Part shown: piece after piece, positions 2,826-42,252 of the stretch
Numbering within the stretch: position 1 is the stretch's first letter
Layout of the letters: each line of letters starts with the position of its first letter
Assembly (NCBI GenBank): GCA_934254715.1
Contig: CAKQLT010000003.1
Location: 1 to 57,449 of the forward strand
Direction of reading: 5' to 3'
DNA from: an uncultured Clostridia bacterium
Lineage (GTDB): Bacteria > Bacillota > Clostridia > Christensenellales > CAG-917
DNA length: 57,449 nucleotides
Notes under the pieces: model-generated
The model's input: only the letters and a program-made list of their open reading frames with translations
The model's database searches: none
What the model was told of the DNA's origin: nothing
Position numbers and translations under genes: made by a program

Positions 2826-2838
2826 GAGGGAGAAAGTT

Positions 2839-11410: not shown

Positions 11411-11500
11411 AGTGTGTGAAAAAATTCTGTATTTACGCTATTTACAAAGATTTCGAGTTGGAATATAATTTGTTAGATAATTGATAACGATGAGGTGCAT

Positions 11501-14222: not shown

Positions 14223-14251
14223 TTGACAAACGCGTGAAAAAAACGTATAAT
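14223..14251 (+). promoter_or_regulatory. Consensus sigma-A promoter of the giant gene
   Basis: TTGACA (14223..14228), exactly 17 nt, TATAAT (14246..14251). Predicted TSS is near 14258. A second TATAAT lies at 14259..14264. Confidence 0.75.
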
Positions 14252-14271
14252 TGGACTGTATAATAATCTAC

Positions 14272-14302
14272 ACATATGCGCTACACGCGTAGAGGCATAT
14301 GT
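14272..14302 (+). promoter_or_regulatory. 5'-UTR stem-loop just upstream of the SD of the giant gene
   Basis: ACATATGCGCTAC-ACGC-GTAGAGGCATATGT forms 12 bp with a small bulge. It starts ~14 nt from the predicted 5' end and ends 3 nt before the SD GGAGGA (14306..14311). Confidence 0.6.
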
Positions 14303-14315
14303 TTCGGAGGAGATT

Positions 14316-14390
14316 ATGAGAATGAGAAAGTTATCGCTCGTATTGTTGCTCGTGCTGATCAGCGTTATGCTGTTCGGTCTCGTGGCGTGC
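14316..14390 (+). other. Lipoprotein signal peptide with lipobox L-V-A-C (Cys25)
   Basis: MRMRK (positive n-region), LSLVLLLVLISVMLFG (h-region), LVAC (lipobox), then NPKTDGNTDTPVIPTPTPNPDPD (a Pro/Thr/Asp tether-like stretch). Confidence 0.85.
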
Positions 14391-17300
14391 AATCCGAAAA
14401 CCGACGGGAACACCGACACCCCCGTCATTCCTACGCCGACGCCAAATCCGGATCCCGACAATTCCGAGTACATCGGCGCGCAGGATTTCTGGAACGCTTT
14501 TAAGGCCGCCGCTCTGAACGAAGCGGGCGCGGAAAAAGACAAGCGTTACATAAGGGTTGACACGGCATTCGTGATGGGCTTTTCCAAAGATTCGTCCGAC
14601 TCGCTTATCGTTGCTCGCTTTGCAGGCAACATCGATACGCTCGACGATTCAAACAGCGAAATACTCGTTGAATTCCGCAAGTTGGCAGCCGAAATAAACG
14701 GCAGAACCGTCGATCAAGACACCATCTGCACGATGGCGAAAAACGGCGAAGGATCTCTGCTTTTCGGCGCGTACTATTACGAGGGCAAACTCGTTGCGGA
14801 TATGCGCGGAATCAAGAAGGACGACGGCGTGCACGTCGTTTACACCGACACGATCAATATGACCGACTTCGTGTCGAGATTCGCAGACGCGCTCGAACAA
14901 CTCGATCTTTCCTCTATCTTGTATGACACGTTGATGGGTTACGACATCGGCGGTCTCGTCAACAGTCTTATCAAAATCGATATCGCGCATTTGACGGTCG
15001 AGCAATTGCTCGTCAACGTATTGTTCGGCGCAAGCAAGGGCACGCGCGTTGACTACGGCAACGGACATCAAGTGCTTCGTATGCCTTGCGACCTCGGACT
15101 TATCGTCAGCATAATTCCGCTCGTACAAGGTCTTATCCCCGAAAACATCATCGGACTCGTAAAAGACGTACTCGGTCTCGATTTGGGCAAACTCGGCGCG
15201 CTCGCCGGTATGGCTCTTTATATGGAAGCCGACATTATGAACGGCGCGCTTCAAGGCACGACGTTCGACATCGACGTAAACCTCAACTCTTACGGCGTAG
15301 AGGGCGTTGAAGAAAAGTACGGCACGTTCCAGTCCGAATTCGGCATTAAACTCGGCTATGCGAAAGCAGACTTTGCAGGTACCCCCGACCTCAACTTAGT
15401 CGGCGACGCAGAGAATCCCGGACTTCTCAAAAATCGCAACGAAAAGAACACCGCTCGTCAAGACGGTGAAAAATCCCTTTACGACGCCGTAAACGAAAGC
15501 GCGGAAAAATATTCCTTCCTCACTCTCGACGGCGCAATCTCTCTCACTCTCAACTTCAACGAAAAGAAAGTGTCTATCGACAACGTGATAGGCTCTTTCG
15601 GCACTCTCATTTCAAATCTTCTCACCAAAAATCTCGACCCCGAAATGCTCGAAGCACTCAAACCGTTGTTTGCAAAAGAAATAGATTTTGCCAGCGGCGA
15701 GGCGAAACTCACGATAAAACTTCAAGCGGAAATCGATACGAGAGATTCCGCAAAGACCAGACTTGCGGCGGAAATCCTCGGTCGTGACGGCGCAAAACGC
15801 GTGACGGCTTACTACACCGGCGCGAGAGAAGGCGTGTATATCGACGCGGGCGGTTTGCTCGGTTACAACGGAACTAAGTTCAAAATCGACGACATCAACG
15901 TCAACGAACTTTTGGGCAACCTCGTAAACACCGTGTTTGAAACCATCAAGGGCGCAATCGACGGACTCAAAGGCGGCGCAACCGCTCAAAACATTCAACA
16001 AGCGTTCGTGGACAACGGCGAAATCGTCATTCAACACGGCGCGTACTCTGCGGCGGAAGGCGAAGGCTCTGTGGACGTCTTGTCCCTCGTGAGTATGATT
16101 CTCGACCATATCAACGTCGGTATGGACGAAAACATCTTCAACATCAGAGATATAAGCGTGGATTTGTCGAGAGATATTCTCGACGCAATCTTCTCGCTCG
16201 TGTTTACGGGCGACAACGCGGGTGCGGACATTCCCATCACCGGCGCGTTGCTCAAATACGTCAACAACGGCGCACAACAAAACAAGACTCTCACTTTGAG
16301 CGCGGAACTCGGCGTTCGCGAATATAACGAAGCAAACACCGAATACAGCCTCGCGCCCCTCATCGGTCTTGCGCTCGGCGTTGACATTACCTTCGGTAAA
16401 ATCAACAATTTGCCCGACTTCGAGGCGACGTTTGAAAAACTCGAAAACGAACTTGCTCAAAACGAAGGCGCATATCTTCCCATTCTCAAAAACGGCGCGT
16501 TGAACACCGATTTGCTTCACGTCAACGTGTCCACGGGACTTACCCTCGACATCGAAACTCTCAAAGGCGAACTCGCAAAGATCGAAGTCAATATGCCCGA
16601 TCAAGAAATCGGCACGATGTTCAAGGGTATTTTGCTTAAAGCGTTGATCGAACTCGGCAACATCGACGGCGGTCTTAAACTCGATATAAACGCAGACATC
16701 GACCTTACCGGCGGTCTCGATACGAGCGCAATCCTCGATTTGCTTTTGAAGTCTTCCGCAAAGATTGCGATTTCCAAGCAATCCAACAACGAAGAAGTGC
16801 TTGCGATTTATTTGCAAGACGGTTGGGTGTACCTCAAAGCCGACATTCTCTGCATAAGCGTTAAACAAATCAAACTCAACGTTAGAGAACTTATGGATAT
16901 GCTCGGCACGAACGGCGACGATTCGTCGAGCGATCAGGCTCTCGTTGCGGATGAAACCGAAGAAGGCGGTATGGACATCAATGCCGTTCTCGGATTCGTG
17001 GCGGGTATCATCGACGGATTCAAACTCGGCAATCACGCTCTCGAAGTCGTCCTTGCTTCCAACCTCTTTGAACAAGTCCTCGGACTTCTCAACATCGACG
17101 GCGTTAAGATCGAATTTGCAAGCACGGAATTTGACGGCGGAATCCGCATTGCTCTCAACGACGGACTCAATCTGCCCGAACTTCAACTCGGCGTGTTCGT
17201 ATCTTTGGGCAACAACGTCAACCTTGACTTGTCCCTCAACGGCTTGTCCGCAGGTTTGAACGACAAAGCGACCAACTATTTGTTGAACGATAATCGTCAA

Positions 17301-20300
17301 AGCGACGATTTCACCGAAATTCTCGAGTATCCCTTCATCGGACTCGACCTCACGCTCGGTCTTAACTTCACGGCGGACCAAGGCGCGAGAGAACTCGTGT
17401 TCGGCGAGGGCAAATACTGGCTCGATTCAAACGGCAAATACGTCGAAATCGAAAAGACGCCCGTTCCCGACGGATACACCGGCAAACTTTACTACAAGGA
17501 TTCCGACGGTATATATCAAGAAGAAAATATAACCAAAGCGACTCTCGCGTTCGACGAGCCGATGAATCTCAATTACGAGTTGCGCATTGCGGGTCAACTC
17601 GACCTTTCGCCTATCGTCGAATATTTGCTCGGCGCGCCCCAAATCAACACTAAGGGCAACGTCAGCGAATTGATGATTGAACTTACGGGCAAAAAGTCAA
17701 GCGACATAAGCGGTCAACTCGCCGCAGAACGCAAAGTTTTGCTCGGACTTTATTACACGGGCGGTTCGCTCTACATCGACGCAAGCAACTTCGGTTTGGA
17801 TAAGGTCAGAACGGACGTTGACCTCTATGAGGTCATTCTCGCATTGCTTGCAAAAGACTCGACCGTCGCGGTCAACGGCGCAACGGGTGCTGAAGCAATG
17901 GCGGCGGAAGATACGATCGATCAAAACGACGCAGACGCGAGAAAGGCTCTTGCGCTCGACGTCATCGCAACGCTTTCTTCCGACAACGTTAAGTTGCAAA
18001 TCGCAAAAGGCTTGACCGACATTCTTTATCAACTCATCGGAATCGACGCAAGCGACATCACTGCTTGGGCGCAAATCGCTTGGGCAAGCGTAAAGGATAA
18101 ATTCGACAACAAACCCGTCCGTATCGCGCTTGACGTCAACAACGACGCAGGTCAACAAATCGGCGGTGCGGAAATCTATATCGGCACGACCGTCAGAGGC
18201 GAAAACGGCGAAACGCTCAGCCCGCTCAAACTCGAAATCGGCGGCGACGCGGTCGAACCTATCAGAATCGTACGCGACGGACAACAAATGCAAGAAATGG
18301 CGTCCTACGTCCAAAGCGAAGGCAACGTGTTTGAAGACGTAGAATTGTTCAACGACTACGGCGACGTCACCATTCCCAGCATTTACGCCGAAATTCAAGG
18401 CACGTTCACGGTCGGCGCGCTTCAAGGCAACAAGTCTTGGACGGTCGGCGAATGGATTGCGTCCTTCCTCGACGACAGCAATCCCGAACTCAATTCGTTC
18501 ATCAGACAACTTCTTCTCACCTACAAAGTGCCTGTCGAAGCGGGCGCAAACATCGGATTCCGCATTGCTCTCAACGCACATCTCAATCCCGACGTTCCCG
18601 TTGACCTCACTCAAAACGTAGTGTTCAAGAAGTACGAAAATTCAAAACTCGCAGACCTCGCGAAATACGTCGAAGTCTACAAACTCAGCGGCGCGAAATA
18701 CATTCTTCTCACCGACGATGAACGCACGACGTTCGAGGGCGACGTATACGTCAAACAATACGTTGCGGGCGGCATTGCGCTCACCGAAGTGACCGACCTC
18801 AATTACAGAGGCGAAGGTTACGTCCTCGTTGACGGCAACTACGTCAAAGTCAACGTCACCGACGAAAATCAAGAACAATACGCAAACGACCAAATTTACA
18901 CTGTGGCAAGTTTGCTCGACATCGCGTACATCGCGTCTCACAGCGATATTGCAATCGAAATCTACAACGAGAAGATAACGCTCGTGGAAAAGATGACCAA
19001 CGCGGAAAAACTCGAACACGTTATCCTCGCGTTGCGTTTGCAAAGCACGGGTGAAAACGCGCAAGGTCAATCGGTAAGCACCGTTTACCTCGATTTGAGC
19101 AACGACTTCCACCTTGCGCTTAACAACATCGACCTCGGCGGATTGCTCGGCGGATTGCTCACGGGCGGCTCGAATAGCGGCAACGACACGGCAACCACGG
19201 CGGCAGACGAGAGCGCAAGCGGCGGAATCGACCTTATGGGTATCCTCGGCAAGGTTCTCGGCGGCATCATCGGCTATATCGGCGTTGACACCGAAGGTTT
19301 GCAAATCAACTTTGCACAAGCACTCGTTGCAACCCTCGTACAAATGCTCGCAGGCAAGCAAGTTGACCCCGAAAAGTTCATCAAACTCAATTCGGACAGA
19401 AGTTATCTTGCGTTTGCGTGGAAGGACGATTATAAACTCGAATTCAATCTTCAAATCGACCCCGCATACGTCGGATTCGAACTCAGTTCAATCAAACTCG
19501 CGCTCGGCAAAGAGGGCGGTGTGTTGCCCGACGATTTCGACCCGAACGTCTACACGACGGCGGAAAATCTCGACACGCTTTCTCTCAACGTCGACCTCGG
19601 ACTCGATTTGCAACTCAAAGGACAAGACGAGCAAGTACGCCTTGAAAAATACCTCGATTTGTTCCTTGCAGACCTCGGCATTACGCTTGGCCTCGATATG
19701 TTCGACGACATCGAATACAACATCGGATTGAGCCTCGGCGCAAACCTCGCGCTCAACGAGCCGAACGAGAGCAATATTGTTCTTGAAGTTAAGAATAAAA
19801 TAACAAATAAGAATATATTAGCGGTTTACATCGAAGGTCAGAACATCTATTTCGATTTCGGAAGCCTCGGTCGCGAACCCATTTATCTCGAAGGTACGAA
19901 CCTTTGCGACGTGCTTTGCAAGTACATAACCGACGCTCTCGGCGACCTCAATTCCATCGTTAAGAACGGTGCTTCCACCGCAGCGGACGAAGTCGCGGCA
20001 AACAGCGCGGACGAGCAAATGCAACTCATTCTCGACATCACGGACGGCAAACTCAGCGTACTCGTTATGCAAAACGTCCTCGTCGGACTTATTGCGGCTC
20101 TCACGTCAAACGGAAGCAGCACCGACATCGCGACGATTATCGAGAAACTCGACCTCGACATTTCCGTCGGCGTCGATTTGCAACTCGACCCGTCTATCGC
20201 AATAAACGTCAACGTTGACAGCAACCTTATCGCACTCGGCGTAAGCGTTGACAACATCGACGTGGCAACCGGCGCGAACAGCAACGCATACGCGACAATC

Positions 20301-23300
20301 CGCGAAAAAGCGCAAAAGGGTATCAGAGGCGACGATAAGTTCGTTCTTCTCTCGGAAGCAGAAAAGGCAACTTACGAAGGCAAGAGATACAACAAAGTCG
20401 GCGGCACGTTCGTCGAAGCGGAAAACGGCGATTACAGAGGTTACTACACCGAGATGTCCAACGCGCACATCATCGAAGTCGACCTCAGTCTTATCGTTGA
20501 CTACTACGCAAGCGCAACGTACACTCTCGTCACCGACCAAAGAGCGCTCGAAACCATTTCGCCGCTCGACAGATATTCGTATAGCAGCAACGAGCAAAGA
20601 TTCGTGCAAGACCCCAACGGCACTTACGTCCGCGAAGGTTTCGCATTCGACGAATTGCTCAATCTTATCCTCAATATGGACGGTTTGCAGAGCATTCTCG
20701 CAACTATGCTTCCGCAAATCCGCATTAACACCGACAACGAAGAAATCGGCTTCGACGTGCAGAACGACAAGTTCAGCGTCGGCGATTTGCTCAAACGTCT
20801 CGGACTCAACCTCGTGCTTTCCGACAAGATGGACGACGGCTTCAAACTCGACGTAAAGGCAAGGCTCAACCTTCAAAAGATAGGTATGGAAGACTTGTCC
20901 AAGATTGACTTGAAGAACCTCAATCTCGACGTCGAAACAATCCTCAGAGGTTTGGAAGCGTACGTCGGAATCGACTTCGATTACGAGCACGAAGGCACAA
21001 ACACCAAACTCGGCGTATATCTCGAAGACGGCGTTGTGTTCGTCGATATGGAAGGTATCGGCGGTCCTCGCGTACAAGTCGGTCTTATCGATTTGATCGA
21101 GAAACTCGGCGTTGAATTCGGCGCGGGCAGCAGCGACGCAAGCACGGCGGCGGACACGCAAGACGGTGAAATGAGCGTCGGTCAAATCCTCAATATGATC
21201 GTTTCCAAGATCGTACTTGCGGGCAAACCGTGGACGACGGGCGGCAACACGAACAGAATCGACCAACTCGGCGTATTCGTGCGCGCAAACTTCATCAACG
21301 ACTTGTTCTCGATGTTGTTCAAGACGGTAGTCGATTCCGAAAACACGGTGGTGGACGAATCTCAAAGCGGTTTGTTCATCTATCCGCAAACGGACAAGTT
21401 TGCATACTGCGGCGTTGACGAAGCACTCGCTTTGCAACTCAAACTTGCTCTTGCAAACAAGAAAGACCCCGTCGAAAACACGCAATATCTCATCGACCTC
21501 AATCTCGGACTCGACGCGAAAGTCGGTCTCGTAAGCGTTGATACCAACTATCAACCGCTTCTCGACAACGACGAAAAACTCGAATTCATCTCACTTGACG
21601 ACTACATCGAAAACATCGTCAAACTTTTGGGCGGCTTCGGCGGCGAAAACTATCAAAGAACGACGGACCTCACCGACAACGCAATCTACTATACGTTTGA
21701 GGCGAGCGACGACGGCGAATACTTGCTCAAGACGGGTATGTACCGCAAGCCCAACTTCACGGTTGACGCAAACGGCGCGTACGTTCTCGGCGAAGACGGC
21801 GAATACAGACTTATCAGCGACGGCGAAACGTTGCCCGAAGGCACGAAGCGTTACGCAAAAGAAGACCTCACCGACGTTCAAATGTATTCTCGCTCTTACG
21901 CAACCGTAAAAACGGGCGAAGACGGCAAGCAATACGCGTATATCGTCAAATACGACGTCGATCCTAACGGCTTGTACGTCTACGACGCAGAAAACGACGT
22001 CTACGTCAACAAGAACGACGCTTCCGCACCCGAAAGCAACACGTTCTATTCGAGAGTTGATATGCCGATCACCGTCACCGAAACGGACGCGGACGGCAAC
22101 GAAATCACTCGCAACGCTCTTGCAAGCGAGGTCAAACTCTACAACAAGTGCGGAAAGACAGCGTATCAAGATCAAAACATCTCTTTGAGCGTAAGCGGCT
22201 TGATTTACTTCAATTCCGCAAGCGCGGAAGTCGTCAACGCGGGCGGCTTGCTTCCCAACGCGTTCCGCGATATGATTATCAACTTGCAAACGCTCAGCGC
22301 ATTCAACGCGGGTATCGGTTTGAGAGTTTCCGCAAACATCGACCTTGCGGCGCTCGATTTGCAAGGACTTGCGTCCGGCGGCACGTTCGGCGACTTCATC
22401 AATAACAGCGATTTGAGCAAAGTCGAACTCGCAATCGAGTTCGTCGAAGTGAACGAAAAGGGCTACTTCGCAAAATACGACACTGCAAACGACACCGGAA
22501 ACGGCAACGAAAAGGTGCTCGGCGGTATGTATTTGAGCGGCGGCACGCTCTATCTCGACCTCACGGGCGTAGTTTCCACTGCGGAAAACTATTCCAAGAT
22601 TGAGAACTTCGTTGAATTTGCAAAGAAAGTTATTGAAAAACTCGGCTCAATCGGCGGCGACAAAGAAGAAAACGGCGCGCAAACGGCAAGCGACGAAGTG
22701 CAAACTCGCTCTAGCCAACGCGACGCGGTCTTGTTGCTTGCATACAGCGATTCTCAATTCCAAATCCAAATCACGAAAGCGTTGATCGCATTCGTGCTTG
22801 CAACGTTTATGCCCGATCTCGGCTCGCTCGAAGACGTATTCGACGTGTTCAACATCTCTTTGGGCGTTGACCTCGGTCAACCCGTTTACAAGCTCGTAGA
22901 TGATTTGAAAGCGACCGATCCCGATCTGTACGAGAAATTCCAAAACGAGTACAAGGGCGACAGATACCGCAAGTACGAAACCGAAGATTTCAGCCAAAAA
23001 GCGGACACCGACACTTACTACGTCGCAGGCAACGCATACTATCTTGCAAGCACCACTTACGTTTACGAAGTGACTGTCGAAGGCGAGGAAGTCACCCCCG
23101 TTGACGGCGAGAAGTTGAGATTTACGGACGGCAACTACGATGCGGACAAGACCTACGCAGTGCTCGAAAACGGCACGTACGTAGTGATTTCAAACAAAGT
23201 TCAAGGCAAGTACGTTCATTCCAACGCAAACTACTATGCGAAAGTGGAAGGAATCACCGACCCCGTAAGTTTGCGCAGTTACAGAATGTACAGAAGAACG

Positions 23301-26300
23301 GACGGCGTTGAAAGCGTCACCGACACGTACATTGCAGGCGACACTTATATCCGCTATAACGGCGAAGAAAGAAAGATCGAAGAATTGAGATCTCGTTTGT
23401 TCGGCTACGTCAAAGACGAAAACGGCGAATATTACAGAACGATAGACCTCTACAATCAAATCAGCGATTACTACATCGGACTCGACGTCGCAATCGGTTG
23501 TGTGAATATGGGTCTCAAACTCGGCGGAATCGAACTCGGTTTCGGCGCGGGCGAGGAATTGTTGCCCGCATACATTCGCGACGGCAAAGCGCACTCGACG
23601 TTCGTAACGAGCGGCACTCTCAACAAGGAAATCGAGTACACCGACGAAACCAAGAACGTCTACGACTTCGAGGATATTCCGACCAATATGTTCTACGACA
23701 CCATCATCACGGTGGGCTTCTCGGTTGAACTCGAATTCGGTATCACGGAAGGCACGCTCGACTTCGGCAAGATTTTGAGCAGCATAATCGGCGACCTCAC
23801 GGGCGTAGTGGTCGAAATGCCCTCAACCACGAAGGGTTATTCTTCCGCGCACTTCAGACTCGACGTGTCGCTTATGGTTGACATCTACGACCTCACCAAG
23901 TCCGAACTCAAAGTCGAACTTATCAACGTCACCGAAACCGGTTACGAGAGTTTGTGGCTCGGCGCGTACTACGTCAACAACACGATTTACGTCAACCTTG
24001 AAGACGCGTTCAACATTCAAAAGTTCGCAATCGGCGGTCTTAACATCGCGGAAATCCTCAAAGATTACATCATCGATTTCGACACCGATAAAGAGTACTT
24101 TGTTGCGGGCGGCTCGCAAACGGCTTCCACGAGCGAAGCGTCCGTGGCAAGCGGCGCACAAGCAAGCGACGTTGACCTCAACGACAAAGAACTTGCTCTT
24201 TCGATGCTCATCAACAGAGATTTGCTCACCTTGAAACTCGGCGACAAACTCTTTGACACGATTCTCGAATATATCCCCGAAGATTTGCTCGGATTCGACA
24301 TCAAAGACTTGTTCTATCAAGAAATCAACGGCGGATTGCAAGTCGAACTCAACACGTCCGACAGCATCAACCTCACGGTTGACGTTGCGCTCGGTCTCGA
24401 CGGCGACAGATACAACAAAGATTCCGACTACGCGGGAACGGACGCAGACAATGAAAGCCTTGCAAACAAGGTCGGCGTTTCCGAAATCTACTACGTCTTC
24501 AAGCAAGACGCAAACGGCAACTACGTCAAGGGCGAAAACGGCAACTACGTCCGTGCAATCACCCCCGAAAAGACCAGTACAGAACGCTACGCCAAGTACA
24601 AAGTCAAGGTTGACGAGGGCGTAAAAGTTCCGTATCTCGTCAAAGTTCTCGACAACGGCAAGGGCGACGGCAGCGAATTGCTCGACAAGACCAAACTTCC
24701 GATGCTCGAAGACGGCGAAAGCGCGGTTGCGATTTACAAGTACGTTGCGGGCGCGGTTGCAAACAAGTCCTACGTCAGCGACGGCGGCAAGTACGATATG
24801 ACGCTCACGCTCGAACTTGCAATCAAGAATCTCGACGTTGCGTTCACCAACTCTCGCACGTACGTCCTCAGCGGCGACGAACTTGCAGAGTACACCGATA
24901 TGGACGACGTTGACCGCTTCACGCTCAGCGAAACCATCGACATTACGACGCAATTCAAGAGCGGCAAGGACAACGACATCGATTTGAGCGCAGTGCTTCA
25001 AGCGTTCTTCCCGAGCCTCACCGACGAGCAACTTCTCGTCATCAAGGCGCAAGCGGACGACGGCGGCGACGTAAATCGTTCCTTGCAACTCGTTTTGGAC
25101 GTTGACATTCAAGTTGCGGCATTGCTCAACTTTATGCGCACCGAACTCGTCAAGTACACCGACGAGGGCGACCAATTCGACGGCGATATGGATTTGTTCA
25201 CCGTCATCGATTTGCTTAAAAAGGTCATCGAAAACATCGACACGACGCAACTGACCAACCTCATTGCGGACGTAGCAAGTTACGTCAACCTCAGCGTAAG
25301 ACTTCAAACCAAGGGCGGCAACGACGCAGACTACCACGATATGCTCGGCATTTATATGGTAGGCGGCACGTTCGAGTTGCTCACGGAAGAAGAAAAGACC
25401 AACGTAACGAGCGAACATTACGTAGACCCGAGCGAGAGATACGACCACTACTTTGAAACCAAGAACGGCAGTTACTATCTCGACGAAACGACGGGCGAAT
25501 ACAACTACATAACTTCGGATACGTTCGCGGGAACGAGATATTCCTACGATTCGAGTTATTGCTACAAGAACGAAAAGGGCAACTACAAGCGCGAAAACGG
25601 TGGCTTGTTCGTTGACCTCAGTTACTTCAATATTCCGTCCTTGCGTATCGACGCAAACGAAATCCGCAAACTTGTCGGCAGCATCTTCGCACTCACTTCT
25701 GGCGAGGCAATGACGGCGGCGGACGACACGACGGGCGACGGCAGCACCGACGACGGCACGGACAGCGGAATTTCCTTCCCGCTCGTCAAAGACGACACCA
25801 TTCTCGGCTATATCAGAACGTTTGCATACGGCTTGCAAATCACGTCGAGATACGTCAAGGTGCTTGCAAACGCAGACTATATCAACAGCATTCTCTCTCT
25901 CGTAATGGGCGAGAACGCAATCCAATTCGACGACGATAAGTTCGTCAACCAACCCAACGTCACGCTTTACACGGACAACACGAGATACTCTTACGAGAAC
26001 GCGCAAGACGTTATCGACGAGTTCAAGAACAACGTAAACGGTCTCGACAAATCGTCGGCAGAGTACAAGAAGTTCGCAAAAGAACTTGAAAGCACTCTCA
26101 CCAAGTCCAAGTATTTGTTCGACATCACCGAGTACAGCGGTAACGACGGCGACCAAAACAAGGGTATCTACTTCAAGGCGAGCGACGGCGCATACGTACA
26201 AAAATCCGAAATGTCCACCGTCGAGCGCGAAGCGTACGACAAGCAAGTCGTGGCAGGCAAAGCAAGTTACTACGACGTAAAGAAAGTCAATGTTTACGTC

Positions 26301-29300
26301 AAACTTTCAAGCGGTGCATACGTCCTCTACGCAGACGCGACTCAAACTCAAATCAACAACTGCGAAAAGGTTGCGGAACTTCAAAACACTTATTTGATAA
26401 GAGTTCCGAAACTCTATTTCCGCAACGCTACGAGCGGCGAATACGAAGCGGTCGATTTCCGCTACAACATCGTCAAACCGCTTCAAGCGCGCAACGAGTT
26501 CATCTCGGTCAACCTCTATTTGTGGAATCACAAGTTGTCTATCGCAATCAACGCGCCGTCGGTCGGCGTAACCAAGTTCAATTACGTCACGGGCAAGGAA
26601 GCGATGGATAATCTCGGATTCACCGACATAGCGGAAGGCGCACGTTACATCAACACCGACGAAGATATCTACACCAGCGTGGATAAGGCTTCCGACGGTT
26701 TGAGCAACTGGGAATTCGATTACTACACCGGCGGCAACTTCGATACGAGCAAGTACGCAAACGGTCCTCGTTACTACGAGTACAGAGGCGAACTCATCGC
26801 AATCACCAAAGATTCGTTGTACGTCAAGAACGGCACTCAATACGTTCCTGCGGCGGCGGTAGACGCAAGCGCGAATCCGATTGAGACGAGTTGGGATTTG
26901 TTCCCCGACTTCATCGCGGAAATCGAAAACAACGGTGCGGAATACTACGTCGAGAACACGGCGAAGACCGCGTACGTACGCGTACAAAGAACTTTCATCT
27001 ATAAGAAGTACACTTACAATACCGAAAAGAAGGTTCTTATCCCCGCAACCGACGACCGTAGCCCCGAAGACTACTACATCAAAGTTCAACAAGCAAGTTC
27101 GATTACGCAACCCGACTTCTCGAAGCCCGAATATGCGGATTACGCGTACAAGAACTACGTTGACAGCGACAACCTCTACTACATCTCGCTTGCGTTGAGA
27201 GGCAGTCTGTTCATTCAATCGGGCAAGATTTACCTCGATTACGCAACCTATCAAGAAGCGTACAAGAGCGTAACGGGCAAAGAACTCACCGACGCGAACT
27301 ACAAGACCGTACTCAACGGCATAATGTTCAAGAAGTTCCAAGGCGATTACGTCAAAGTTTCCGCTTCGGACGACCTCGACGCACTCAAAGCAAACGGCGG
27401 TTTGTACGTTTGGGTCAACAGCACTCTCGACGAGAAATACAACGGCGTGAACGAAGCGCTCGGCGACGTTTTGGGCAACTTGCTCGGCGCAATGACGGGC
27501 AAATTCCAAATCGCGGAAGATATGACGTTCAACGTTTACTTCTCGCTCAGATTGAACCTCGGCTTCAAACTCTACATTCTTCCGTCGTTCAGTATCGACG
27601 TTCGCGACCTTGACGTTGCAATCGACGTTTGGGGCGAACAAAACGACTTGCTTGACGACGGCACGGGCAAGAACTACGTCACGAGCAAAGACAGAGACGA
27701 AAACAACTACGACGTCAAGTTGCTCGACGGCACGAAGCCTCATATCCTCGGCGTTTACTACGACAACGACCAAGACACGGGCAAAGCGGGTCTCTATATC
27801 GACGCGGAAGCGTTGCTCGGCAAAGACGCAAAACTCTTTGTGGATATGAGCAAGTACACGCTCGAAGAAGTTATCACGGGTCTCGTGGCAGGTATCGGCA
27901 AAGACGCCGTTGCGGCAGACGCGTCCGTTGCTTCCGACGACGTGACGAATCTCAATCCCGACAAACAAGGTTCGGATTCGACGAGTTTGTTCGTCAACAT
28001 ATTCACCAACGCGCTCGCACTCAACGTGACGTCCGGCTTTGCAAAAGTTCTTCTCAAAGAACTTATGCCCGACAACGCAAGCATTGCGGATATGTTGCCC
28101 AACCTCAAAGTTTATCTCAAACAAAACCTCAATCCGTACGACATTACGATAGGCGCAATTCTCTTTAACGAGAAAGGCGATATCCCCGTGTTCGACCTCG
28201 GACTCAACATTCAAGGTTTGAACGGTGTGACGGGCGAGTCCTCGTCCATCGAGTTCGGCAGAAAAGAAGATATTTTGGCAATGCAACAAGGCTCTAACGC
28301 AATCTTCTACTATGCGAACTTCTACCGCGACAACGACAACACGGATTACAGCAACTACTACGGAAAGAACTACAACGGCAAAGACTATCTCAAACTCATA
28401 CGCGACGAAGCGACGGGTTACGATTATATCGCAAACGAGGACGGCACGAAGGGCGACCTCTACACGGGCAAAGACGCAAACGGCAACACGGTTGCGGGTC
28501 CCGAAGACAGATATATGAAAGCCGCGCCCGTTATGAGCGAAGTGCTTGCCGCAAGACAGTTGGCGTTCAAGGGCGACGTGTACACCGACGTTGAGGGCGT
28601 GTATATGCTCGTTTACAAACGCCTCAACGACATCGCAGGCAACAACAACCTCGACGAAGACACGTACAGAGAGTACAGAAACCTCGTCAATACCAACCAA
28701 TTTGCGACCTACACGGGCACGCTCTACACGGTTGACAACAACGGCAACTTCGTCAAGACGGACAAAGACACGCTCAAAGGCTTCACGGGCGAGGGCAATT
28801 TGCAATACGCTCTTGCAAGCGTGTATGAGGACGGTGCAACCGAAAGCGAAAAGAGCAAAGCGATAGTTTACAACGAACAAACCTATTATCCGATTGACCC
28901 CAACGGCAACGGATACACCGATATGAGCGAAGCGGACGACTTTGCAAAGAGTTATCCGAGCGCGAAAGTCTACAAACAAGTCACCGATTTCACCAACTAC
29001 ACGAGAGCATTGGCACTCGACCTCGGCGATTTGCTCGGCGGCGGCACGTTTGACGTTGCAAGCGTACTTGCGGACCTCGAAAGCGTCGAACTCGGAATGA
29101 ACCTCGACATCAAGATGACTCTCGACGACGTCATCAACTGGACGTATCAATTCACGAGATTCATCGACGATCCGCAAATCAGCGAATATCTCTACTTCAT
29201 CGCGACTTCGCTTCAAGGCAACAAGGAATTCCAAAGCCTTATCGGCTTGAACCTCAACCTCAAGGCGTATCTCAAACTCGCAAATCTCGTCAAGATGATT

Positions 29301-32300
29301 TCGGGCGACACGAGCGTGGGCATTTTGCAAGCCCTCGAAGGCGCGAAGATTTATCTCGAATTGACCTACGAAACCAACTTCCACGGCGACAAGAAGCCGC
29401 AAGCGTTCTTGTGGGTTGAAATCAAAGACGGCAAACTCTATCTCAACATCGACGCGAGCCAAATCGGCGAAATCGTCGGTTGGGGCGACTTCTTCTCGTA
29501 CGGCGTGGTCGAAGGTCTCGACCTTTCGAGCATACTCGGCAGCAGTTCGACGACCGCAAGCGCGCAAGCGTCCGTTGCGGCTGACGACGAGGAAGTCAAC
29601 ACGGGCTTGATTCCGTCGAACGTATGGGGCGTTCTCAACGTCGTACTCGGCAGATTGCTCATCGCAAACGACTTCATCACGGTCGGACTCAACGAAACTC
29701 TTATCGCGGACCTCATCGGTATGCTCGCGGGCAGCGACAGCGCAGTGCTTCAAGGCATCAGCGAGTTCTTGCCCAAACTCTACACGACCGACACCAAGGA
29801 CACCAGCGGTATCACCATCAACTTCTACGGCAACTCGCCCAGCATCGACATCAACCTCGGCTTCAAGGTAGGCACGCTCTATTACGAAACCGTCAACAAC
29901 TTCAATGCGATGTACGGTGCAAACGGCAAGTACTCGAAGGGAAGCGACTGGTCGGGCACAACGTTCAAGAAAGAATCGGACGGTTCCTACACGGTTGGCA
30001 AAGTTGAAAAGAAAGACAGCGCCGGCGCCACCGTTACCGACAATGACAACACCTATGTACTCGTGTCCACCGACGATTACGCACTCGTTGCGTACGCATA
30101 TCCTGCTTGGGACGGCGACACCTACGACTACGACGCGGCAACGAACACGTTTGCGAAACACACCGCAAGCGGCACGAAGGGCGCATACCTCAAACAAGGC
30201 GACTTCGCAATCGCGATTTCTCTCGGCAAACTTTACGCTACGGTGAACAAAGACTTCTCTGTGGACAAAGACGAGAAATTTGCGGATAAGAACGCAGACG
30301 GTTCAATCAAGTACGTCGAAGCGGAAGACGGCAAGTACGTCAAGAACGCAGACGGCACGTATCGTCTCGCAACCGAAGCGGACGGCGACTTGACGCACTA
30401 CAACGCTTCTTACAGCAACTATACGAGTTTGCAAAGCGCAACCGCACACCTCGAATTGTCAATCGAGATTTCCTTGTACGGAAGCGGCAAAGCGGGCGAC
30501 GACAACATAATCGATTTGAGCGAAATCCTCGATATGATTATGGGGCTCATCAATCCCGACAGCGCAATCAGCGGCTCTACTCTCAAACTCAACATCGTCA
30601 ACGAATTCGGTAACGACCAAGGCGCGTTCCTCACGCTCGACCTCGTTGCGAATATCGACGTTGAAACGTACAAAGTCGAACTCGGACTCGAACTCAACAA
30701 GAAGACGGCAAGTATGACCACCGCAAAGACGTTGCTCGGCGTTTACCTCATTGAAAACGCGGTATACGTCGACCTCAGCGGCATACTCGGCGAAACGGCA
30801 AAAGTCGCGGTGACCGACCTCAACCTTGACGGTTTGCTCGAAGGCGTACTCGGCAAGTTCCTTAATCAAGAAGAAACCACCGACGCGTCGGGCGCAAGCA
30901 TTGCAAGCAAAGAGGACATCGGCACGATCGAAGCGAACAAAGATCATTTGAAGGATTACGCATACTTTATGATCAACGTTACGCCGCAAAAACTCTTGTT
31001 GCAACTCAACGCAGACCTCGTCAATGCAATCTACAAGAAGATAATGGCGATTCGCGGACTCGAACAAAAAGATTTGATTCCCGACATCGGCGATTTGCTT
31101 GTCAGAATGGACGCAACGGGCGACAAGACCGTCATCAGCGTCAACTTGAGATTCAGCGACGGCTTGTACTTCTGCCTTGACATTCCTGCGGCAAGCATAA
31201 CGAAGGATACGAGCAAGGGCATTGCGGAACACTTCGGACTTTCCACCGAAGACAAGAAGTTCTACAAGCAACTCACTCAAGACGAACTTGCGGCAAATCC
31301 GTCGCAAGAAAAATACGTCAAGAACGCGGCGGGCGAGTACGTCCTCGACGAAAACCCCGTTGACGAAAGCAAGACGTATTACAGATACACTCACACGGCA
31401 AAAGTGCCGAGAGATTATCTCGAAATCCTCGCGCTCGACCTCGAAACGCTCGTAAACGGCACGGGTACGTTCGACATTTCGTCGCTCAACTTGCCCACGA
31501 TCGGTCTCAAAGCGTCGCTCAACGTCACTATGACGTCCAAGAACCTCAAACCCGGACAAACCGGTTACGACGAATCGTTGGCAGGCTGGACGCAAGACCT
31601 TCTTGCAAACTTGCTCAGCGGTCAGGCTATGTTCGGACAGTTCAGCACGCTCACGTGGCAAGACGCGAAGACCCTCACCGACGGCGGAAAGGTCTACGAA
31701 GGCAAAGTCTACGTCAAGAACGCGGACGACGCGTACGAACTCTACACCGAAAAGACGTATTCCAAAGATACGACTTACTATAAGTACACTCTTGCCGACA
31801 TCAATATCACGATGGCAAATGAGATCAATCTCACCATCAATATTGCGGCAAACGTAAACCTTGCGCCTATCATCGCGTACGGTATCGGCGGTATCTTGTT
31901 CAGCGACATCGCAGTTGACATCATTGCGGGCGCGCCCGTCAATTCCAACATCATCAGCCTCTACTATCTCGGTTCTTCCAGACTTATGAGAAAAGACGGC
32001 AGCAAGTGGGAACTCGATTTGGCAAGCGGCGCATATTCGTCCAACGAAATCTATTCCGACGCGCTCTACGTTGACGCAAGCGGTTTGGGTCTCGGCAAGA
32101 TTAAACTTCAAGGCATCGCAGGCTTGCTCGGCGCAACCCCGAGTTACGACGCACAAACGGCGTCCGGCGCAAGCGTAAGCGCAGACGCAACGACGTCCGA
32201 CGCGTCCACGTCCGACGCGAACACCGCAGGTGCGAACGCCGCGGCAAGCAACGCGCTCTACTTGCAAATCGACATTCAAAACGGACGTCTCGGCGTGTCC

Positions 32301-35300
32301 TTCGACAACGCGTTTATCTCAACGCTTATCGGAATGCTCGGACTCGACCTCGGCGACATCGAACTTCCGCCCATCAAGTCGGTCAAACTTGACGTAAACC
32401 TCGGCGCAAAGGGTCTCGATTCAATCAACCTCAACGCGCAACTCGACAGCGTCGGCACGGGCGCAAACGTCAAGATAAGCGACTTTGAACTCGGCTTCGG
32501 CAAGAGTATGGTCGAATCCGCAAAACTCATCGAATCGGTGAAGACGGGCTACACCGGATTGACTCTGTCCAAGACATCGGGCATTATGTCCCTCATTCAA
32601 AACGTCATCGACAGTTTGAAACCGGGTCTTTCCATCAACATTCAGAACAAAGTATGGCAGTTGACTCAAGCAAGAAAGGTCGCGACGTTGTATCAAGATT
32701 CAAGCATAACGCTCAGCGGCAAGAAGGTTCTCACGTCAACCAACATACCGAAGTCTTCACCCGAAAAATACAATATCCGTCTTGACTTAAAGAGCAACAG
32801 GGCAGATACGGGACTTTCCGCAATAGTGGGCGGCAACAACATCTTCGTCACCAACATCACGCTTCCTTCGGGCGGCTTGGTCGGTACGCTCGCGCCGTTG
32901 ATTTCCGCACTCAACTGCCTCGACCTCGGCAGTATGATGGGCAGTTCGCCGCTTCTCGCGCTCGTAAACGGCACGGACGGCGATGACGCAACGTATGAAT
33001 ATCCGTCCGCAAAGACGGCGGCAGACGCCACTTCGACGCAAGCGGCAAGCGGTTGGAACGCAGACAAGACGTCGTATTCTTACCCCGTCAAACTCGACAA
33101 CCTCGTCAAGAGCGTTGACGTCAACTTGTTCAACGACAACGAGTACTGGCCGTACTTTGAAAACGCAACGGCAGTGACCAACGGCGCGGGCAAGATTTCC
33201 GTCAAGGTCACGCTCAACAAAGATTCGTACAACGAACTCATAATTATGGTCACGTCCATACTTATGGGCTTGATGAAAGACAAGATCGACGGTGACGACG
33301 GCGAAGCGTACTTCGGCGACGTCCAAAAGGCTCGTAACGGTAAGACGGGTATAACCGGCAGCGGTTTGTCCTCTTACGCGATCGACGGAATCGGCGACAC
33401 CGACGAAATCACCAAGTTCTACAACGGACTCGACGAGTTGGTCAAGAAGAACGCGTCCACGCAAGAGAAAGTCAACTACGTCGAACCGTTCGCAAGATCC
33501 TTGCCGGTAACGTTGACGAAGTGGGCGTTGTTGTTCGCGCTCGACGCAGCAGGCGTATCGCTTAGTTACGGTACTATCCAGAACCTCGCAAGCGAAGTCA
33601 TCGAAGACTTGAACTTCCTCATCGGCGGTATTCTTCCCATTCCGTTTGCAAGCGGTGAAATCGATCCGTCCATCAACATTTACGTCGATCTCAACCCGAC
33701 TGCACGCGATTACGGTTGCACCGGCGGTCAAACCGTGAAACCCGGTATTCAAGCCATCGAAATTATGGTCAACGCCGAGAAGAACGGCACCGGCACGGCA
33801 ATGAAGTACAACAAAGCGCAAACCACCACCAAGAGCGATATGAACCGTATGGCAAACGGCGGCGGCGCGGTTGCGGCAGGTTCTGCAAACAGCACGACGA
33901 CCAGTTTGAGCGAGGCTTGGGACTTCTTTATGATTCGTCTCACGCCGTACAGCATACAAGACAGTTCGTTCACGACGGGTATGTTGTACTTTGACGACGC
34001 AGAAAGCGCAGAAAAGGTTGACACCGAAGTCACACCGCCCACCGAAATCGTAATCGACGATCCGGCAACGAGATCGGGCAGTGCAGTGTTGTCGAGCGGT
34101 TCTACGACGCCTATCACGCTTCGCGACAGCGCATTCCTCAACAAAGACGTGTTCCCGCAATACGCAAACGTCAAATTCCCGATTTATCTCAGCGGCAAGC
34201 AAATGCAGTCCTACGATAAGTCAGGCGACTACAGCGACGCGCCCGGCACGCAAATCGTTTGGGACGCGGCGACGGTCGATTTGACGGCGGCAACTTCCGA
34301 AGACGCTTCGGGCAGACGTCTTGCGGGTTACGTATACGGCTACGCGCTCAACGTGGTGCTTTACGCAATCCCCGTCTACGTCACCAACGACAAGGAAGCG
34401 CAAACACAATCAATCAAGGGCTATTACAGAAACGACGACGGTACTTATTCCGAAAAGGCACTGGGTATCGACATCGACACCAATAGTTCCAAGTATATGG
34501 CGGAACTTCCCGACCTCGTGAGAATCCCGTTCAGAACGGGCGGCAAGTACACGTTCGCAACCTATCTCAAAGATTCGACGGGCAATATGGCGTACGCGGT
34601 TATCGACCCGATAAGCGGCGCACCGTCCGAAAACGGCTATCAAATCCTCGTCCAACCCACGCAAGCGGAAATCGACGCAGGTGCGGAAGCCAACCTCAAC
34701 AAAGACGGCAACAAGTACTTGTTGATGCCTGCATACGTTGCGGGTCTCGTGACCGAGAAGGACGCAAGCGGCAATGACGTCTACAAGACGATCACCGCAA
34801 AAGACTCGACGGGCGCAGAAGTCAAGTACTACGTGCTCAGCCGCAACAAGTTGCCGAAGGGCAAACAATTCCCCGCAGGCACGATCGAGTGGAACACAGA
34901 CGACTTCAAGTACGATTGGCAAGGCTCGACCGATTGGACGACGGGTGCGGAAAGCAACGTTGTCAAAGTCGGATTCACCTATCAATGGGGTCTCGGCAAA
35001 GCGGTTGAAGACACTATCTCGTTGACTGCAAAGAACTACAAGATTTCAAGACTCACGTCAATGTCCAACGACAAGGACGGCACGGTAACGCAAAACTTCA
35101 AGAGTGAGCGTGACTCTAGCGGCAACTACACGACGATCCTCGAACTCAAAGCGATGGACATCGACGCAAGTATGCAAAACCTCGTGACCTACCTTGGCGG
35201 ATTCCACTTCGTCAACGGCAAGTTCGTCAACGAAAGTTCTATGACGGGCTTCGACGTCGAGTGGGATACGACGGAACTCGCAAAAGCAATTGCGGCGATC

Positions 35301-38300
35301 ACGACCAAAGATTCGAGCGGCAACGACGTCGTAAACTACTACAAGGGTCTTGACGTAACGATCAAAGCAAAGGTCGGCGGCGAGAGATTCAGCATCTTCA
35401 CGTCGGTCACGAAGAATCTCGTTTCGACGGATAAGAGCGGCTTCGTAGGCAAGAGCGAGAGTTACGCCGGCAAGTTCGCGCAAGAAGTCAACGTCAGAAT
35501 CGTCGTCAAACCGTACGAATTCGATTCTATGGCAAAGGCTCTCGTATTCGATCAATATCAATACGAAACGATAACGGCAGATTCCTTCGGCACGGCGTAT
35601 CAGCTCAACGTCAAAGACGCAAGCGGCAACACGAGCGTCGAAAACTTGACCGTCGGCAACGGACTCAGCGTCGAAGCGCCGTTCATCAAGGCGGGCGAAA
35701 CCTACCTCAACGCGTACGACAACGCGGTGCACAAACTCACGTCCGACGAAATCACTTACGAGGGATACAGCAATCAAAGAACCTATCCGCTCTATGCGAA
35801 ACTCGTCATCGGCACGGAATACAGCGGCAAGCAAGAGGTTTACGTTCCCATCGAAGTGAACGCGGTCAAACCCTCTGCCTATACTGTCAACGTCGAACAC
35901 GACAACACTCTCAACCCGACTTGGTACGAGAGATACGACGAGTTCAACGTTTCCATCGGTATGAACACGCACACGATGTTCCCCGACTGGACGACGGTGC
36001 AGTATTACACCAACGCCGCTTGCACGAAACTCAAATCGCAACAAAACATCTTTGACGGCGGTACGATTTACGCGCAAGTCGAAGCGTACGCAACTGCGGA
36101 CGGCACGAAGGACGGCACGAAACTCGCACTTGTCAACACGGGCAAGGTAGACGAGAACGGCGAGCCTATCTATTCGGCGCAAAAGATCACGCTCAGACTC
36201 AACGTCGAGCAACAAACGATACAATCCGTAAACTTCTTCTACGACGAAACGATCGGCGACGTCGCGGCGTATTTGAGAAAATATGCAAACGACGAAGCGA
36301 AACTCGCCGCACTCGAAGCGAAACTTGCGGATATAAACAACTACACGGGCAGCGTATATCAACAAACTCACGTCGTTGACGGCACTGCGTTCGGTATCGA
36401 CCCGATCAACTTTGCAACCAACCCGAGCGACTACTTCAAGACGAGTGCTTGGGGCGACGCAAAGGGCGGCACTGCTGTCAAGGTCAACTTGGTCAAGGGC
36501 GAGTCCTACATCGCATACGTCAGAGCGTTCGACAGAATCGTTTCGGGCAAAGACGTAACCGGCACGGGCAATACGCAAACCGTTTATATGACGATAGGCA
36601 ACAACAAGGTTTCCTTCAACGTCAACATTCCGAGTTATGAATTCGTCGGCGGCGCAATGAGCGACGCGGAAAGCAAACTTACGTATGTAGACGGCAAAGT
36701 CGCGGGCACTGACGACGATACGTTGAAACTCGCGTACAACGTCTTCGACGAATGGAAGTTGCCGAGCAAAGCGACCGTACAAACCGCACAAGGCGTCGGC
36801 GAAATCACCGTTGACGTCAAGTGGGTTGACTACGCCGCGCCCAGCAAAGACGAATTGAAGTCGGACGAGGACGGCAAGTTGTACGTCGAGCGCAAGTACT
36901 TCTTCTTCGACGGACTCACGATGCGTTATCCGAGTGCGGACGCGTTCACGGCAAAGATTTATCTTGAAAACTTCAACGCGAACGTACAAATCGTTCCCGA
37001 CGGAATGAGTGACGTATACGACGTATTTGACAAGTTCGAGTTCGCTCGCACCGCAACCGTCACCGTTGACGGCGTCGCATATCGCAACGTACCTATCCAC
37101 TGGGAAAGCACGGCAATGCCGACTGCGGACGAAATCAAGCAGGGCAGTTTCACTCGCAAGATGTACGTTCTCGGCGTATACGTGGCAGGTCAGGATATTT
37201 ACAGCGACTACGTCGTGACCGTCAACAACGACTTCACGATTGACAAACTTACGGGCGGCTACTTGGCAGGCGACTTTGCAATCGACGTTGCAAAAGACAA
37301 CTTCTATCAAGGCTTGCCCAAGAGCGCAAACGTCAAGGTCGGCGAGAAGACTATCCCCGTCACGCTTGCGTGGAGCGACGACTACACGGCAGAGAGCGGC
37401 TTTAGCGGCAATATGACTCTCACGATAACTTCCAAGGACGGCAACAAGGTCGTGCTCGAAAGTGACGTGAACGTCGCCGTAACGGTCGAATCCGCAGGTA
37501 TCACGGGTCTTGCGAAGGCTCAAAAATACGTTCTCGACCCGTACGCAAAGAGCGGCACGCTCTTTGAATCGGGCAGTTTGCAAGAAGTCAAAGTCAGCGG
37601 CAGCGACAAGACGCAATACGTTGCGGTCGAATACGAATTTGACAATCAAGCGTTCTACGACAACGTGGCTTCCTACTTCGGCAAGAAGTACAAAGTCGCG
37701 GTGACGTACAAGTACAACGCGGGCAAGAACGTCAACGTCGAAACGGGCGAAATCGAAGTTTACGTAGTCAACAGAAGCATTATGTTTATGTCCGACTACG
37801 AGAATCGCTCGATTGTGGTGGATACGTTCCTTCACAAAGACGCTTCCTATCTTGCCAACAAGATGAGTATCACGACGACGGGCGGCGACGTGTTCGACGC
37901 GTACTTCGACTGGTCAGACGTTGACAAACTCATCAAGAGCGGAAAGAGCAACTCGGCGTATATGGCGACCGCGCTCGTGGGCGTCGAGAAAGCAAACGGC
38001 GGCTACGTCCTTGCAGATATAACCGACGACGGCAAGGTCAACCCGACTTACGTCGCAATCGAAGACTACGTTGCGTACAAGCAAAAGACCGACCCGAACT
38101 TCGCTCTTACGAACGAAAAGAGATATATGCTCGCAAAACAACGCGTCAACGTACCGGTCACGGTACTTGACCGTACGATTGCGGACGCAGAACTCTTGCT
38201 CGGCGACACCGACCTCGAATATTTGTATTCCGATTCGAGCAAGTATTCCACAATCACCGACACGCTCGTCGGCAAGACGAACGGCGCGTATGACGGCAGA

Positions 38301-40841: not shown

Positions 40842-40876
40842 AAAAGCCTCGCATTTAGCGAGGCTTTTCGTTTCTT
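40842..40876 (+). terminator. Rho-independent terminator of the giant gene
   Basis: AAAAGCCTCGC-ATTTA-GCGAGGCTTTTCGTTTCTT, 34 nt after the stop codon. Confidence 0.85.
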
Positions 40877-42225: not shown

Positions 42226-42252
42226 TAAAGGATAAAACGGACTTAAACACGT

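Follow-up and report, generated by a model that had tools for sequence, protein, structure and literature searches.

An ancient array of about 14 diverged modules of a previously undescribed family in a giant predicted lipoprotein of uncultured Clostridia

Introduction

What is a bacterial protein of 8,830 residues built of, and what might it be for? The question is raised by a stretch of 57,449 nucleotides (nt) from an uncultured Clostridia bacterium of the Christensenellales (assembly GCA_934254715.1, contig CAKQLT010000003.1, positions 1–57,449), hereafter the window. Here a single open reading frame (ORF) on the forward strand, a 26.5-kb gene at nt 14316–40808, encodes what we refer to as the giant protein. 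An initial annotation, made by reading the letters of the window, had proposed that the first ~6,200 residues contain a ~14-fold internal module, each copy of which presents a hairpin motif, an acidic linker and an amphipathic element in that order. Two questions follow from this proposal. Is such a cryptic repeat real and old, and does the repeating module belong to a family that is already known?

Evidence for the module array

The whole module region lies inside the one ORF. A regular expression for the hairpin, written post hoc with the motif already seen, matches the giant protein 11 times, compared with 0.29 ± 0.53 matches in 1,000 shuffled copies. When windows of 250 amino acids (aa) were compared with the whole protein using phmmer, weak off-diagonal matches of 7–18 bits appeared, and these consistently connected the landmarks in register with one another. 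When a profile was started from the best self-matching pair, it grew to the positions given in the initial annotation, with almost no matches in reversed or shuffled copies. In a leave-one-out test, 12 of 13 candidate units were recovered at 10.9–37.2 bits, with 11 reversed or shuffled copies scoring 5.1 bits or less. The strictest test employed a hidden Markov model (HMM) built only from the units of distant relatives, excluding the giant protein and its close orthologues. This independent HMM detects 13 units at 25–84 bits, the best control reaching 8.2 bits, and a marginal unit at the N-terminal end of the array (unit 1). The array consists of 13 robust units and one probable unit, about 14 as proposed, and its existence as an ancient feature of the giant protein is to our minds nearly certain. 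The hairpin and linker coordinates read by eye also hold, agreeing with those from the profile typically within a few to ~20 nt.

Several further candidates were rejected, the first two of which had been taken up by the profile during its iteration. The segment aa 4296–4427 gives −1.3 bits in the leave-one-out test and is attributed to profile drift; aa 7604–7639 gives ~0 bits in the same test and −4.4 bits with the independent profile; and a vestigial unit at aa 6184–6299 gives −0.5 bits. The last of these surrounds what had been listed as a 13th linker at nt 33006–33052, of which the AKTAAD motif (aa 6232) is present and a supported unit is not.

Could the repeat be a chance or compositional pattern in a low-complexity giant ORF, or else an artefact of assembly? 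The weakness of every single pairwise self-match would fit such an origin. Against it stand the leave-one-out and independent-profile tests with their reversed and shuffled controls, together with units at matching positions in distant relatives, an ORF intact in 12 other genomes and purifying selection on the gene, all described below. This explanation is already refuted by the tests run, and we give it practically no weight. A search of the region for long nucleotide repeats returned only imperfect matches of 57 nt or less and three trivial tandem repeats, in line with the earlier impression that long repeats are lacking.

Conserved features of the module

Conservation was measured over 491 units from 141 family representatives. 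Its peaks coincide exactly with the three landmarks, whose fixed order is borne out. The hairpin has the consensus L-G-x-Y(83%)-[LY]-x-x-G-x-L-Y(89%)-x-D(77%), the three percentages referring to columns Y24, Y31 and D33 respectively. The second landmark is the motif [ED]-A-x-T-A-A-D, whose first Ala (A68) is conserved in 78% of the units and whose Thr is conserved in 37%, embedded in a stretch rich in Gly, Ser, Ala, Asp and Glu. The third comprises two strands of alternating hydrophobicity and, after them, an amphipathic segment rich in Leu. The linkers of the giant protein had been described as acidic and rich in Ser, Thr and Ala, and they are indeed so, with 22–40 residues each, including 4–14 Ser/Thr, 4–8 Asp/Glu and 0–3 Lys/Arg. 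Sortase-like and signal-peptidase-like readings of AxTAAD were considered and dropped, the Thr and the flanking small residues being too poorly conserved.

The conserved core of each module spans ~140 aa, and the units are spaced by 250–800 aa. The stretches between the cores are filled by amphipathic strands and by Tyr-rich insertions, whose variable length accounts for this spacing. The many alternating hydrophobic/polar strands remarked upon in the initial annotation are enriched, with 47 alternating-hydrophobic 9-mers as against 22 ± 6 in shuffled copies. In hhalign comparisons of whole modules with whole modules, the alignments are often colinear from end to end, with probabilities that are mostly low and at most 95%; homology between the modules is likely to extend beyond the 140-aa core.

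The Tyr-rich insertions lie between the unit cores at nt ~21650–22070, 22900–23500, 25990–27700 and in other stretches. They hold up to 11 Tyr per 60 aa and 35 beta-hairpin-like motifs of the type [DNGE]-G-x-[YFW] (15 ± 4 in shuffles), differ in length between orthologues and leave short echoes at the nucleotide level, for example GAAGACGGCAAGTACGTCAAGAAC. The relative P0014 has a long and regular version of such an insertion, with the pattern Y-V-x-Y-D-x-x-N-P-A-H.

Family members and antiquity of the array

A word-index homologue search returned only five unnamed orthologous fragments, and the same kind of search with the unit alignment only two, the index being too insensitive. A scan of species-representative genomes was more productive. 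It revealed orthologues in 12 genomes at 52–91% identity, mostly metagenome-assembled genomes from the human gut, labelled as Clostridia, Christensenella sp. UBA6880 or UBA7588, Firmicutes bacterium CAG:238 or CAG:475, and similar. In all 12 of these loci, examined over up to 22 kb each, the orthologous frame is open to the end of the examined DNA; it covers at least 5,678 aa in 11 of them, the 12th locus being a short scaffold of 9.5 kb. The ratio of nonsynonymous to synonymous substitution rates (dN/dS) is 0.17–0.21 against four orthologues and is alike in the unit cores and between them. The giant gene is under purifying selection and is a working gene.

An exhaustive profile search yielded 141 cluster representatives of the family among 1.84 billion proteins. 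Full-length members reach 7,924 aa, and most of them have 11–17 units. Names were sought for ten representative clusters, and none was found apart from one label that derives from a peripheral domain; nor did a search of the literature yield a description of the module family. One metagenome protein of 1,691 aa, P0003, has some 700 N-terminal residues foreign to the family (a precomputed PF14191 assignment) fused to family sequence, and it probably stems from a chimeric contig or from faulty gene calling.

How old is the array? In P0010, P0012 and P0015, which are ~25–29% identical to the giant protein in the aligned stretch, the best match of a unit is its positional counterpart. These matches are perfectly colinear, with scores of 100–289 compared with 47–113 for the second-best, non-corresponding unit. 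Such colinearity was also looked for in the more distant members P0014, P0024, P0030 and P0070, and none was found there. Colinear positional orthology in the three former proteins indicates that the array was in place before their lineages and that of the giant protein split. Taken with the lack of nucleotide repeats, the dN/dS values and the intact frame in 12 other genomes, these positional orthologues support the view, put forward from the beginning, that the array is an ancient, diverged duplication and neither a recent expansion nor an assembly artefact.

Comparison with known families and structures

Pfam and NCBIfam place no family in aa 1–4500 of the giant protein and nothing over the module in aa 4501–6200, and the module segments of 27 relatives show no consistent Pfam family. 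Searches of PDB sequences with both module profiles were empty. In particular, the units match no existing repeat family of Pfam or NCBIfam. Judged by these searches and by the fold comparison below, the module is a previously undescribed family, without a match in curated families or the PDB, as the initial annotation had supposed.

The C-terminal region of ~2,580 aa (aa 6250–8830, nt 33063–40805, forward strand) is devoid of the module and almost entirely unannotated. The sole Pfam domain above threshold in the whole giant protein lies here, a Big_4 domain (PF07532) at aa 8379–8424 (nt 39450–39587, forward strand; 29.9 bits, cut-off 22.1), which occupies ~0.5% of the length of the protein and, being outside the module region, says nothing about the module itself. 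Big_4 is also present in the family member P0031, and Flg_new falls just under its threshold in P0049 (26.2 bits vs 27). Comparison with PDB sequences gave no relative of the C-terminal region. From its sequence this region looks beta-rich. It carries recurrent '..W(D/N)..' motifs, which suggest an array of diverged beta-sandwich domains.

An AlphaFold model of aa 1690–2360 made with four sequences was unusable, with a predicted local distance difference test score (pLDDT) of 32.5. With an alignment of 27 sequences, aa 1560–1990 gave a pLDDT of 58.2 and a predicted template modelling score (pTM) of 0.44, 140 residues being at or above 70. This model shows strands of 5–14 residues (the longest 13–14) and some three helices in each module, with the acidic linkers disordered. 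Its best-predicted part is formed by the strands leading into the hairpin of unit 6, with a pLDDT of 75–85. Unit 5 is modelled as a three-strand meander, a helix and the disordered linker, followed by a helix, a hairpin and a helix. This last helix–hairpin–helix arrangement is the third landmark in one unit (pLDDT ~70), which appears as a low-confidence helix in the other. A Foldseek search of the model against the PDB gave no match at E ≤ 1e-3. Matches to platforms of the major histocompatibility complex (MHC)/CD1 type, with a template modelling (TM) score of 0.10–0.20 and a root-mean-square deviation (rmsd) of ~20 Å, were treated as meaningless.

Export signal and composition of the giant protein

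The N-terminus reads as a lipoprotein signal peptide, MRMRKLSLVLLLVLISVMLFGLVA-C, with the lipobox LVAC and Cys25 (nt 14316–14390, forward strand). Read from the sequence, it has the features of a bacterial lipoprotein, a substrate of Lgt and Lsp, with a positively charged n-region, a hydrophobic h-region and a lipobox of the form [LVI][ASTVI][GAS]-C. The signal peptide is kept in the orthologues, and the same one is found in all loci whose DNA reaches the start. Among the 35 family members of more than 3,000 aa, a regular expression finds a lipobox in 29, and the remaining six begin without a signal peptide and look N-terminally truncated. The giant protein as a whole is strongly acidic, with 14.0% Asp+Glu as against 8.3% Lys+Arg, and Cys is scarce, with 16 among the 8,830 residues. 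This composition supports an extracellular type of protein, and the lipobox together with Big_4 and Flg_new points to a location at the cell surface.

Positions of the individual units

The units listed here are robust profile matches except where stated, all on the forward strand, with the hairpins and linkers placed by profile mapping. Unit 1 (aa 142–210, nt 14739–14945, hairpin FGAYYYEGKLVAD) is marginal, its 9.5 bits being close to the 8.2 bits of the best control; in the relatives P0010, P0015 and P0024, a unit is scored at the corresponding place. Unit 2 (aa 480–631, nt 15753–16208, 25.2 bits) has the hairpin TAYYTGAREGVYID and the linker motif AYSAAE at aa 576, and is detected as well in the orthologues P0004 and P0005. 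Unit 3 occupies aa 812–949 (nt 16749–17162; hairpin nt 16797–16841, acidic linker nt 16908–16976) and unit 4 aa 1130–1265 (nt 17703–18110; hairpin nt 17739–17783, linker nt 17853–17951). Unit 5 (aa 1552–1696, nt 18969–19403) has a variant hairpin with an insertion at nt 19023–19097 and its linker at nt 19152–19232. In unit 6 (aa 1817–1960, nt 19764–20195) the hairpin is at nt 19815–19859 and the linker, with the motif ASTAAD, at nt 19944–20015. There follow unit 7 at aa 2214–2350 (nt 20955–21365; hairpin nt 21006–21050, linker nt 21111–21176), unit 8 at aa 2717–2855 (nt 22464–22880; hairpin nt 22518–22562, linker nt 22647–22721) and unit 9 at aa 3195–3350 (nt 23898–24365; hairpin nt 23955–23999, linker nt 24087–24194).

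Unit 10 (aa 3660–3891, nt 25293–25988, linker nt 25680–25790) had been described as having a hairpin split between nt 25341 and 25598. The profile is consistent with this reading. HMM positions 6–29 map to aa 3660–3685 and positions 26–138 to aa 3759–3888, so that the hairpin (LGIYMVGG / GGLFVDL) is interrupted by a Tyr-rich insertion of ~75 aa; the first half taken alone scores only −1.5 bits. The same insertion is found in the distant orthologues P0010, P0012 and P0015. The array continues with unit 11 at aa 4470–4608 (nt 27723–28139; hairpin nt 27744–27806, linker nt 27891–27977), unit 12 at aa 5010–5157 (nt 29343–29786; hairpin nt 29406–29450, linker nt 29541–29621) and unit 13 at aa 5453–5604 (nt 30672–31127; hairpin nt 30732–30776, linker nt 30867–30956). 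It ends with unit 14 at aa 5863–6030 (nt 31902–32405), whose hairpin is at nt 32040–32078 and whose linker, the longest, is at nt 32133–32252.

Expression signals and neighbouring genes

By match to consensus, a sigma-70-type promoter-like site (TTGACA-17-TATAAT, 12 of 12 positions) lies at nt 14223–14251 on the forward strand, ~65 nt 5′ of the start codon, and an intrinsic-terminator-like hairpin with an 11-bp stem lies at nt 40842–40868 on the same strand, 34 nt past the stop codon. With promoter-like and terminator-like sites of its own, the giant gene looks monocistronic. An inverted repeat with an 11-bp stem is located at nt 14267–14293, downstream of this promoter-like site and ahead of the start codon. 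When translated, the 5′ leader (..ICATRVEAYVSEEIMRMRK) is almost identical across most of the orthologous loci, which suggests a conserved element in the 5′ untranslated region.

The neighbours are ordinary chromosomal genes, with two acyltransferase-3 genes upstream and SPFH/zinc-ribbon, MetRS, TatD and P-type ATPase genes downstream. The acyltransferase-3-type genes lie at nt 11495–12586 (forward strand) and 12756–13811 (reverse strand). The divergent acyltransferase (HGSNAT_cat/Acyl_transf_3) is found directly upstream of the giant gene in 11 of the 12 related loci. The other acyltransferase-3-type gene is absent from all 12, an absence that marks it as an insertion in this genome. Further upstream, at nt 2770–6480 (forward strand), an ORF of 1,236 aa has a signal peptide, a possible lipobox (..FALVLCSP), an Asn/Ser/Thr-rich composition and no Pfam match. 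It lies in a stretch of low GC content (36–42% vs ~50%), was not seen in those related loci whose DNA extends this far upstream, and possibly encodes a horizontally acquired surface protein. Directly downstream of the giant gene, nt 41110–43326 (forward strand) encode two proteins with zinc ribbons. One is of the SPFH/Band-7 type and has several such ribbons at its C-terminus; the other has a transmembrane segment at its C-terminal end.

Discussion

What does a protein of this design do? We consider that the giant protein may be an extracellular stalk or scaffold, strongly acidic and anchored in the membrane, with a beta-rich, immunoglobulin (Ig)-like C-terminal region, and we give this mechanism roughly an even chance of being right. 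The grounds for it are the composition, the anchor, the co-occurring domains of surface type (Big_4, and Flg_new below threshold in P0049) and the pattern of helices and strands. The giant lipoprotein would be exported and anchored by its lipidated Cys25 on the outer face of the cytoplasmic membrane. Its first ~6,000 residues form the tandem array of 13–14 anciently duplicated modules. The predicted core of each begins with a three-strand meander that ends in the LGxY..GxLYxD hairpin, followed by a short strand and a helix, the disordered acidic AxTAAD linker of 22–40 aa, and then a second beta-hairpin with the amphipathic Leu-rich helix. Past the core come several amphipathic strands, modelled at 5–14 residues, then another helix and the variable Tyr-rich insertions. 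Stacked head to tail, with the helices possibly covering the hydrophobic face of the sheets, the modules might build an elongated, strongly negative, two-layer alpha/beta structure. This would project the C-terminal region of ~2,600 residues off the cell, perhaps for binding or other surface interactions in the gut.

Several points weigh against this picture. The databases searched offer no homology that bears on function, and no recognised adhesive domain was found in the C-terminal 2,580 aa with Pfam or PDB sequences. The structural model is of moderate confidence (pLDDT 58, pTM 0.44), and the third landmark is modelled differently in the two units that it covers. Mean-field direct coupling analysis of 406 units (effective number of sequences, Meff, 384) reached a maximum z of 3.7 and gave no clear contacts, a signal too weak for the topology. 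The synteny, moreover, is informative only among close relatives.

The amphipathic strands had led the initial annotation to suggest two other architectures, a hydrophobic groove and a beta-solenoid. According to the former, the array would be a repeating beta-groove conduit like AsmA, TamB or VPS13, the hydrophobic concave face carrying lipids or lipoglycans from the membrane and the acidic linkers serving as loops that cross the groove. The enrichment of alternating strands and the N-terminal membrane anchor, as in bacterial AsmA-like proteins, speak for it. In the repeating beta-groove superfamily the unit consists of strands plus a loop, and the rhythm of strands and loops in the modelled module resembles this, since the module can be divided into two sets of some five strands with a loop after each set, and one of the two loops is long, disordered and starts with a helix. 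On the other hand, AsmA, AsmA_2, TamB/DUF490, DUF748, Chorein_N and related Pfam families gave no match at E up to 1 for the whole protein and 27 relatives. The module profile aligns with E. coli TamB at a probability of 0.1% (hhalign, E 0.55), a weak test as the template was a single sequence. No TamB, VPS13, ATG2 or beta-helix chain is among the top 50 Foldseek matches listed from the PDB. Moreover, each module has three conserved amphipathic helices that could lie over the sheet, and the distal end is an Ig-like array and not a domain for docking to a partner. Clostridia and Christensenellales are not among the known two-membrane Firmicutes, and the carriers, labelled Clostridia or Christensenellales, would have no obvious second membrane to bridge. 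The groove suggestion is left without support from Pfam, hhalign or Foldseek; it keeps a small probability in view of the weakness of these negatives and the suggestive rhythm of strands and loops. A more speculative variant, which we think unlikely, is an amphipathic beta-sheet conduit or scaffold that evolved independently, anchored by its lipid and running through and past the wall of a presumed single-membrane cell of the Clostridia type. Its AxTAAD linkers would cross the groove or serve as elements for modification, and it would be like the beta-groove bridges in logic and not in sequence.

It may also be asked whether the array is a precursor, in which AxTAAD would be a site of proteolysis or O-glycosylation and module-sized mature products would build a surface coat. 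Such a polyprotein would make sense of a short motif, E-A-x-T-A-A-D (A68 78%), that is conserved over the 491 units in an otherwise low-complexity, disordered linker, and of the acyltransferase-3/HGSNAT-type gene next to the giant gene in 11 of 12 related loci. However, that synteny is drawn from closely related genomes only, the 57-kb window contains no linked gene for a protease or a glycosyltransferase, and the Thr is conserved in only 37% of units, which makes a strict sequon or a sortase-like site unlikely. Besides, the linker sits inside the conserved core, so cleavage would split a unit. We regard this reading as distinctly improbable. The solenoid, in which the array would form a rigid fibre of the beta-solenoid or beta-helix kind as in autotransporter passengers or fibres of the tailspike type, would be suited to a giant extracellular protein with many amphipathic strands. 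Its rungs, however, would recur every 18–30 aa, whereas the period here is 250–800 aa and no short tandem periodicity is seen. The modelled strands, which are as long as 14 residues and have helices and disordered linkers of 22–40 aa between them, argue against short rungs too, and no Pfam beta-helix family matches, nor does a beta-helix chain occur among the 50 Foldseek matches mentioned. A regular solenoid of short rungs is unlikely from the model, and for the solenoid fibre in general we see hardly any prospect.

Compared with known systems, the giant protein resembles the giant surface proteins and fibrillar adhesins of Firmicutes (Ebh-type, or rich in Big or Flg_new domains) in being exported, anchored, very large, acidic, poor in Cys and built of tandem units. 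It also has, as they do, an Ig-like domain, Big_4, and in one relative Flg_new comes just short of its threshold. A surface anchor plus a stalk of tandem domains characterises fibrillar adhesins, and the lipobox with 13–14 modules corresponds to this, although the modules are not a recognised stalk domain. Different from the LPXTG or cell-wall-binding anchor of those proteins, the anchor here is an N-terminal lipid. Their Ig-like or other known stalk unit is replaced by an unclassified alpha/beta module of 250–800 aa with an internal disordered acidic linker. Adhesin stalks often have near-identical repeats, whereas the copies here are ancient and ~15–25% identical, and the recognised adhesive domain of fibrillar adhesins has no detected counterpart. 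With the AsmA-like and other beta-groove bridges (TamB, YhdP, VPS13, ATG2) the giant protein shares an N-terminus anchored in the membrane, a length of thousands of residues in which amphipathic beta-strands predominate, a possible periodicity of five strands plus a loop and cryptic, diverged repeats seen only with profiles. In contrast to them, it gives no sequence, profile or fold match, has conserved helices in each module and ends in a beta-rich Ig-like region instead of an outer-membrane or organelle docking domain. Giant repetitive surface proteins are a known kind of protein, and what we describe is a repeat family that is new among them.

With the module defined, there is a starting point for annotating the giant proteins of at least 141 clusters, which are now unnamed or labelled after a peripheral domain. 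Uncultured gut Clostridia with small genomes keep this 26.5-kb gene intact under purifying selection in at least 12 species. The order and number of the copies appear to have been frozen since before the family diverged, which implies that each position has a role of its own; adhesin stalks whose repeats are interchangeable behave otherwise. Should the module turn out to fold as a groove or as a new rod architecture, this would inform the question of how bacteria that lack an outer membrane make very long surface structures or achieve transport through the wall; and were the conduit reading true, the protein would represent a new class of envelope-spanning machine rather than just an adhesin stalk.

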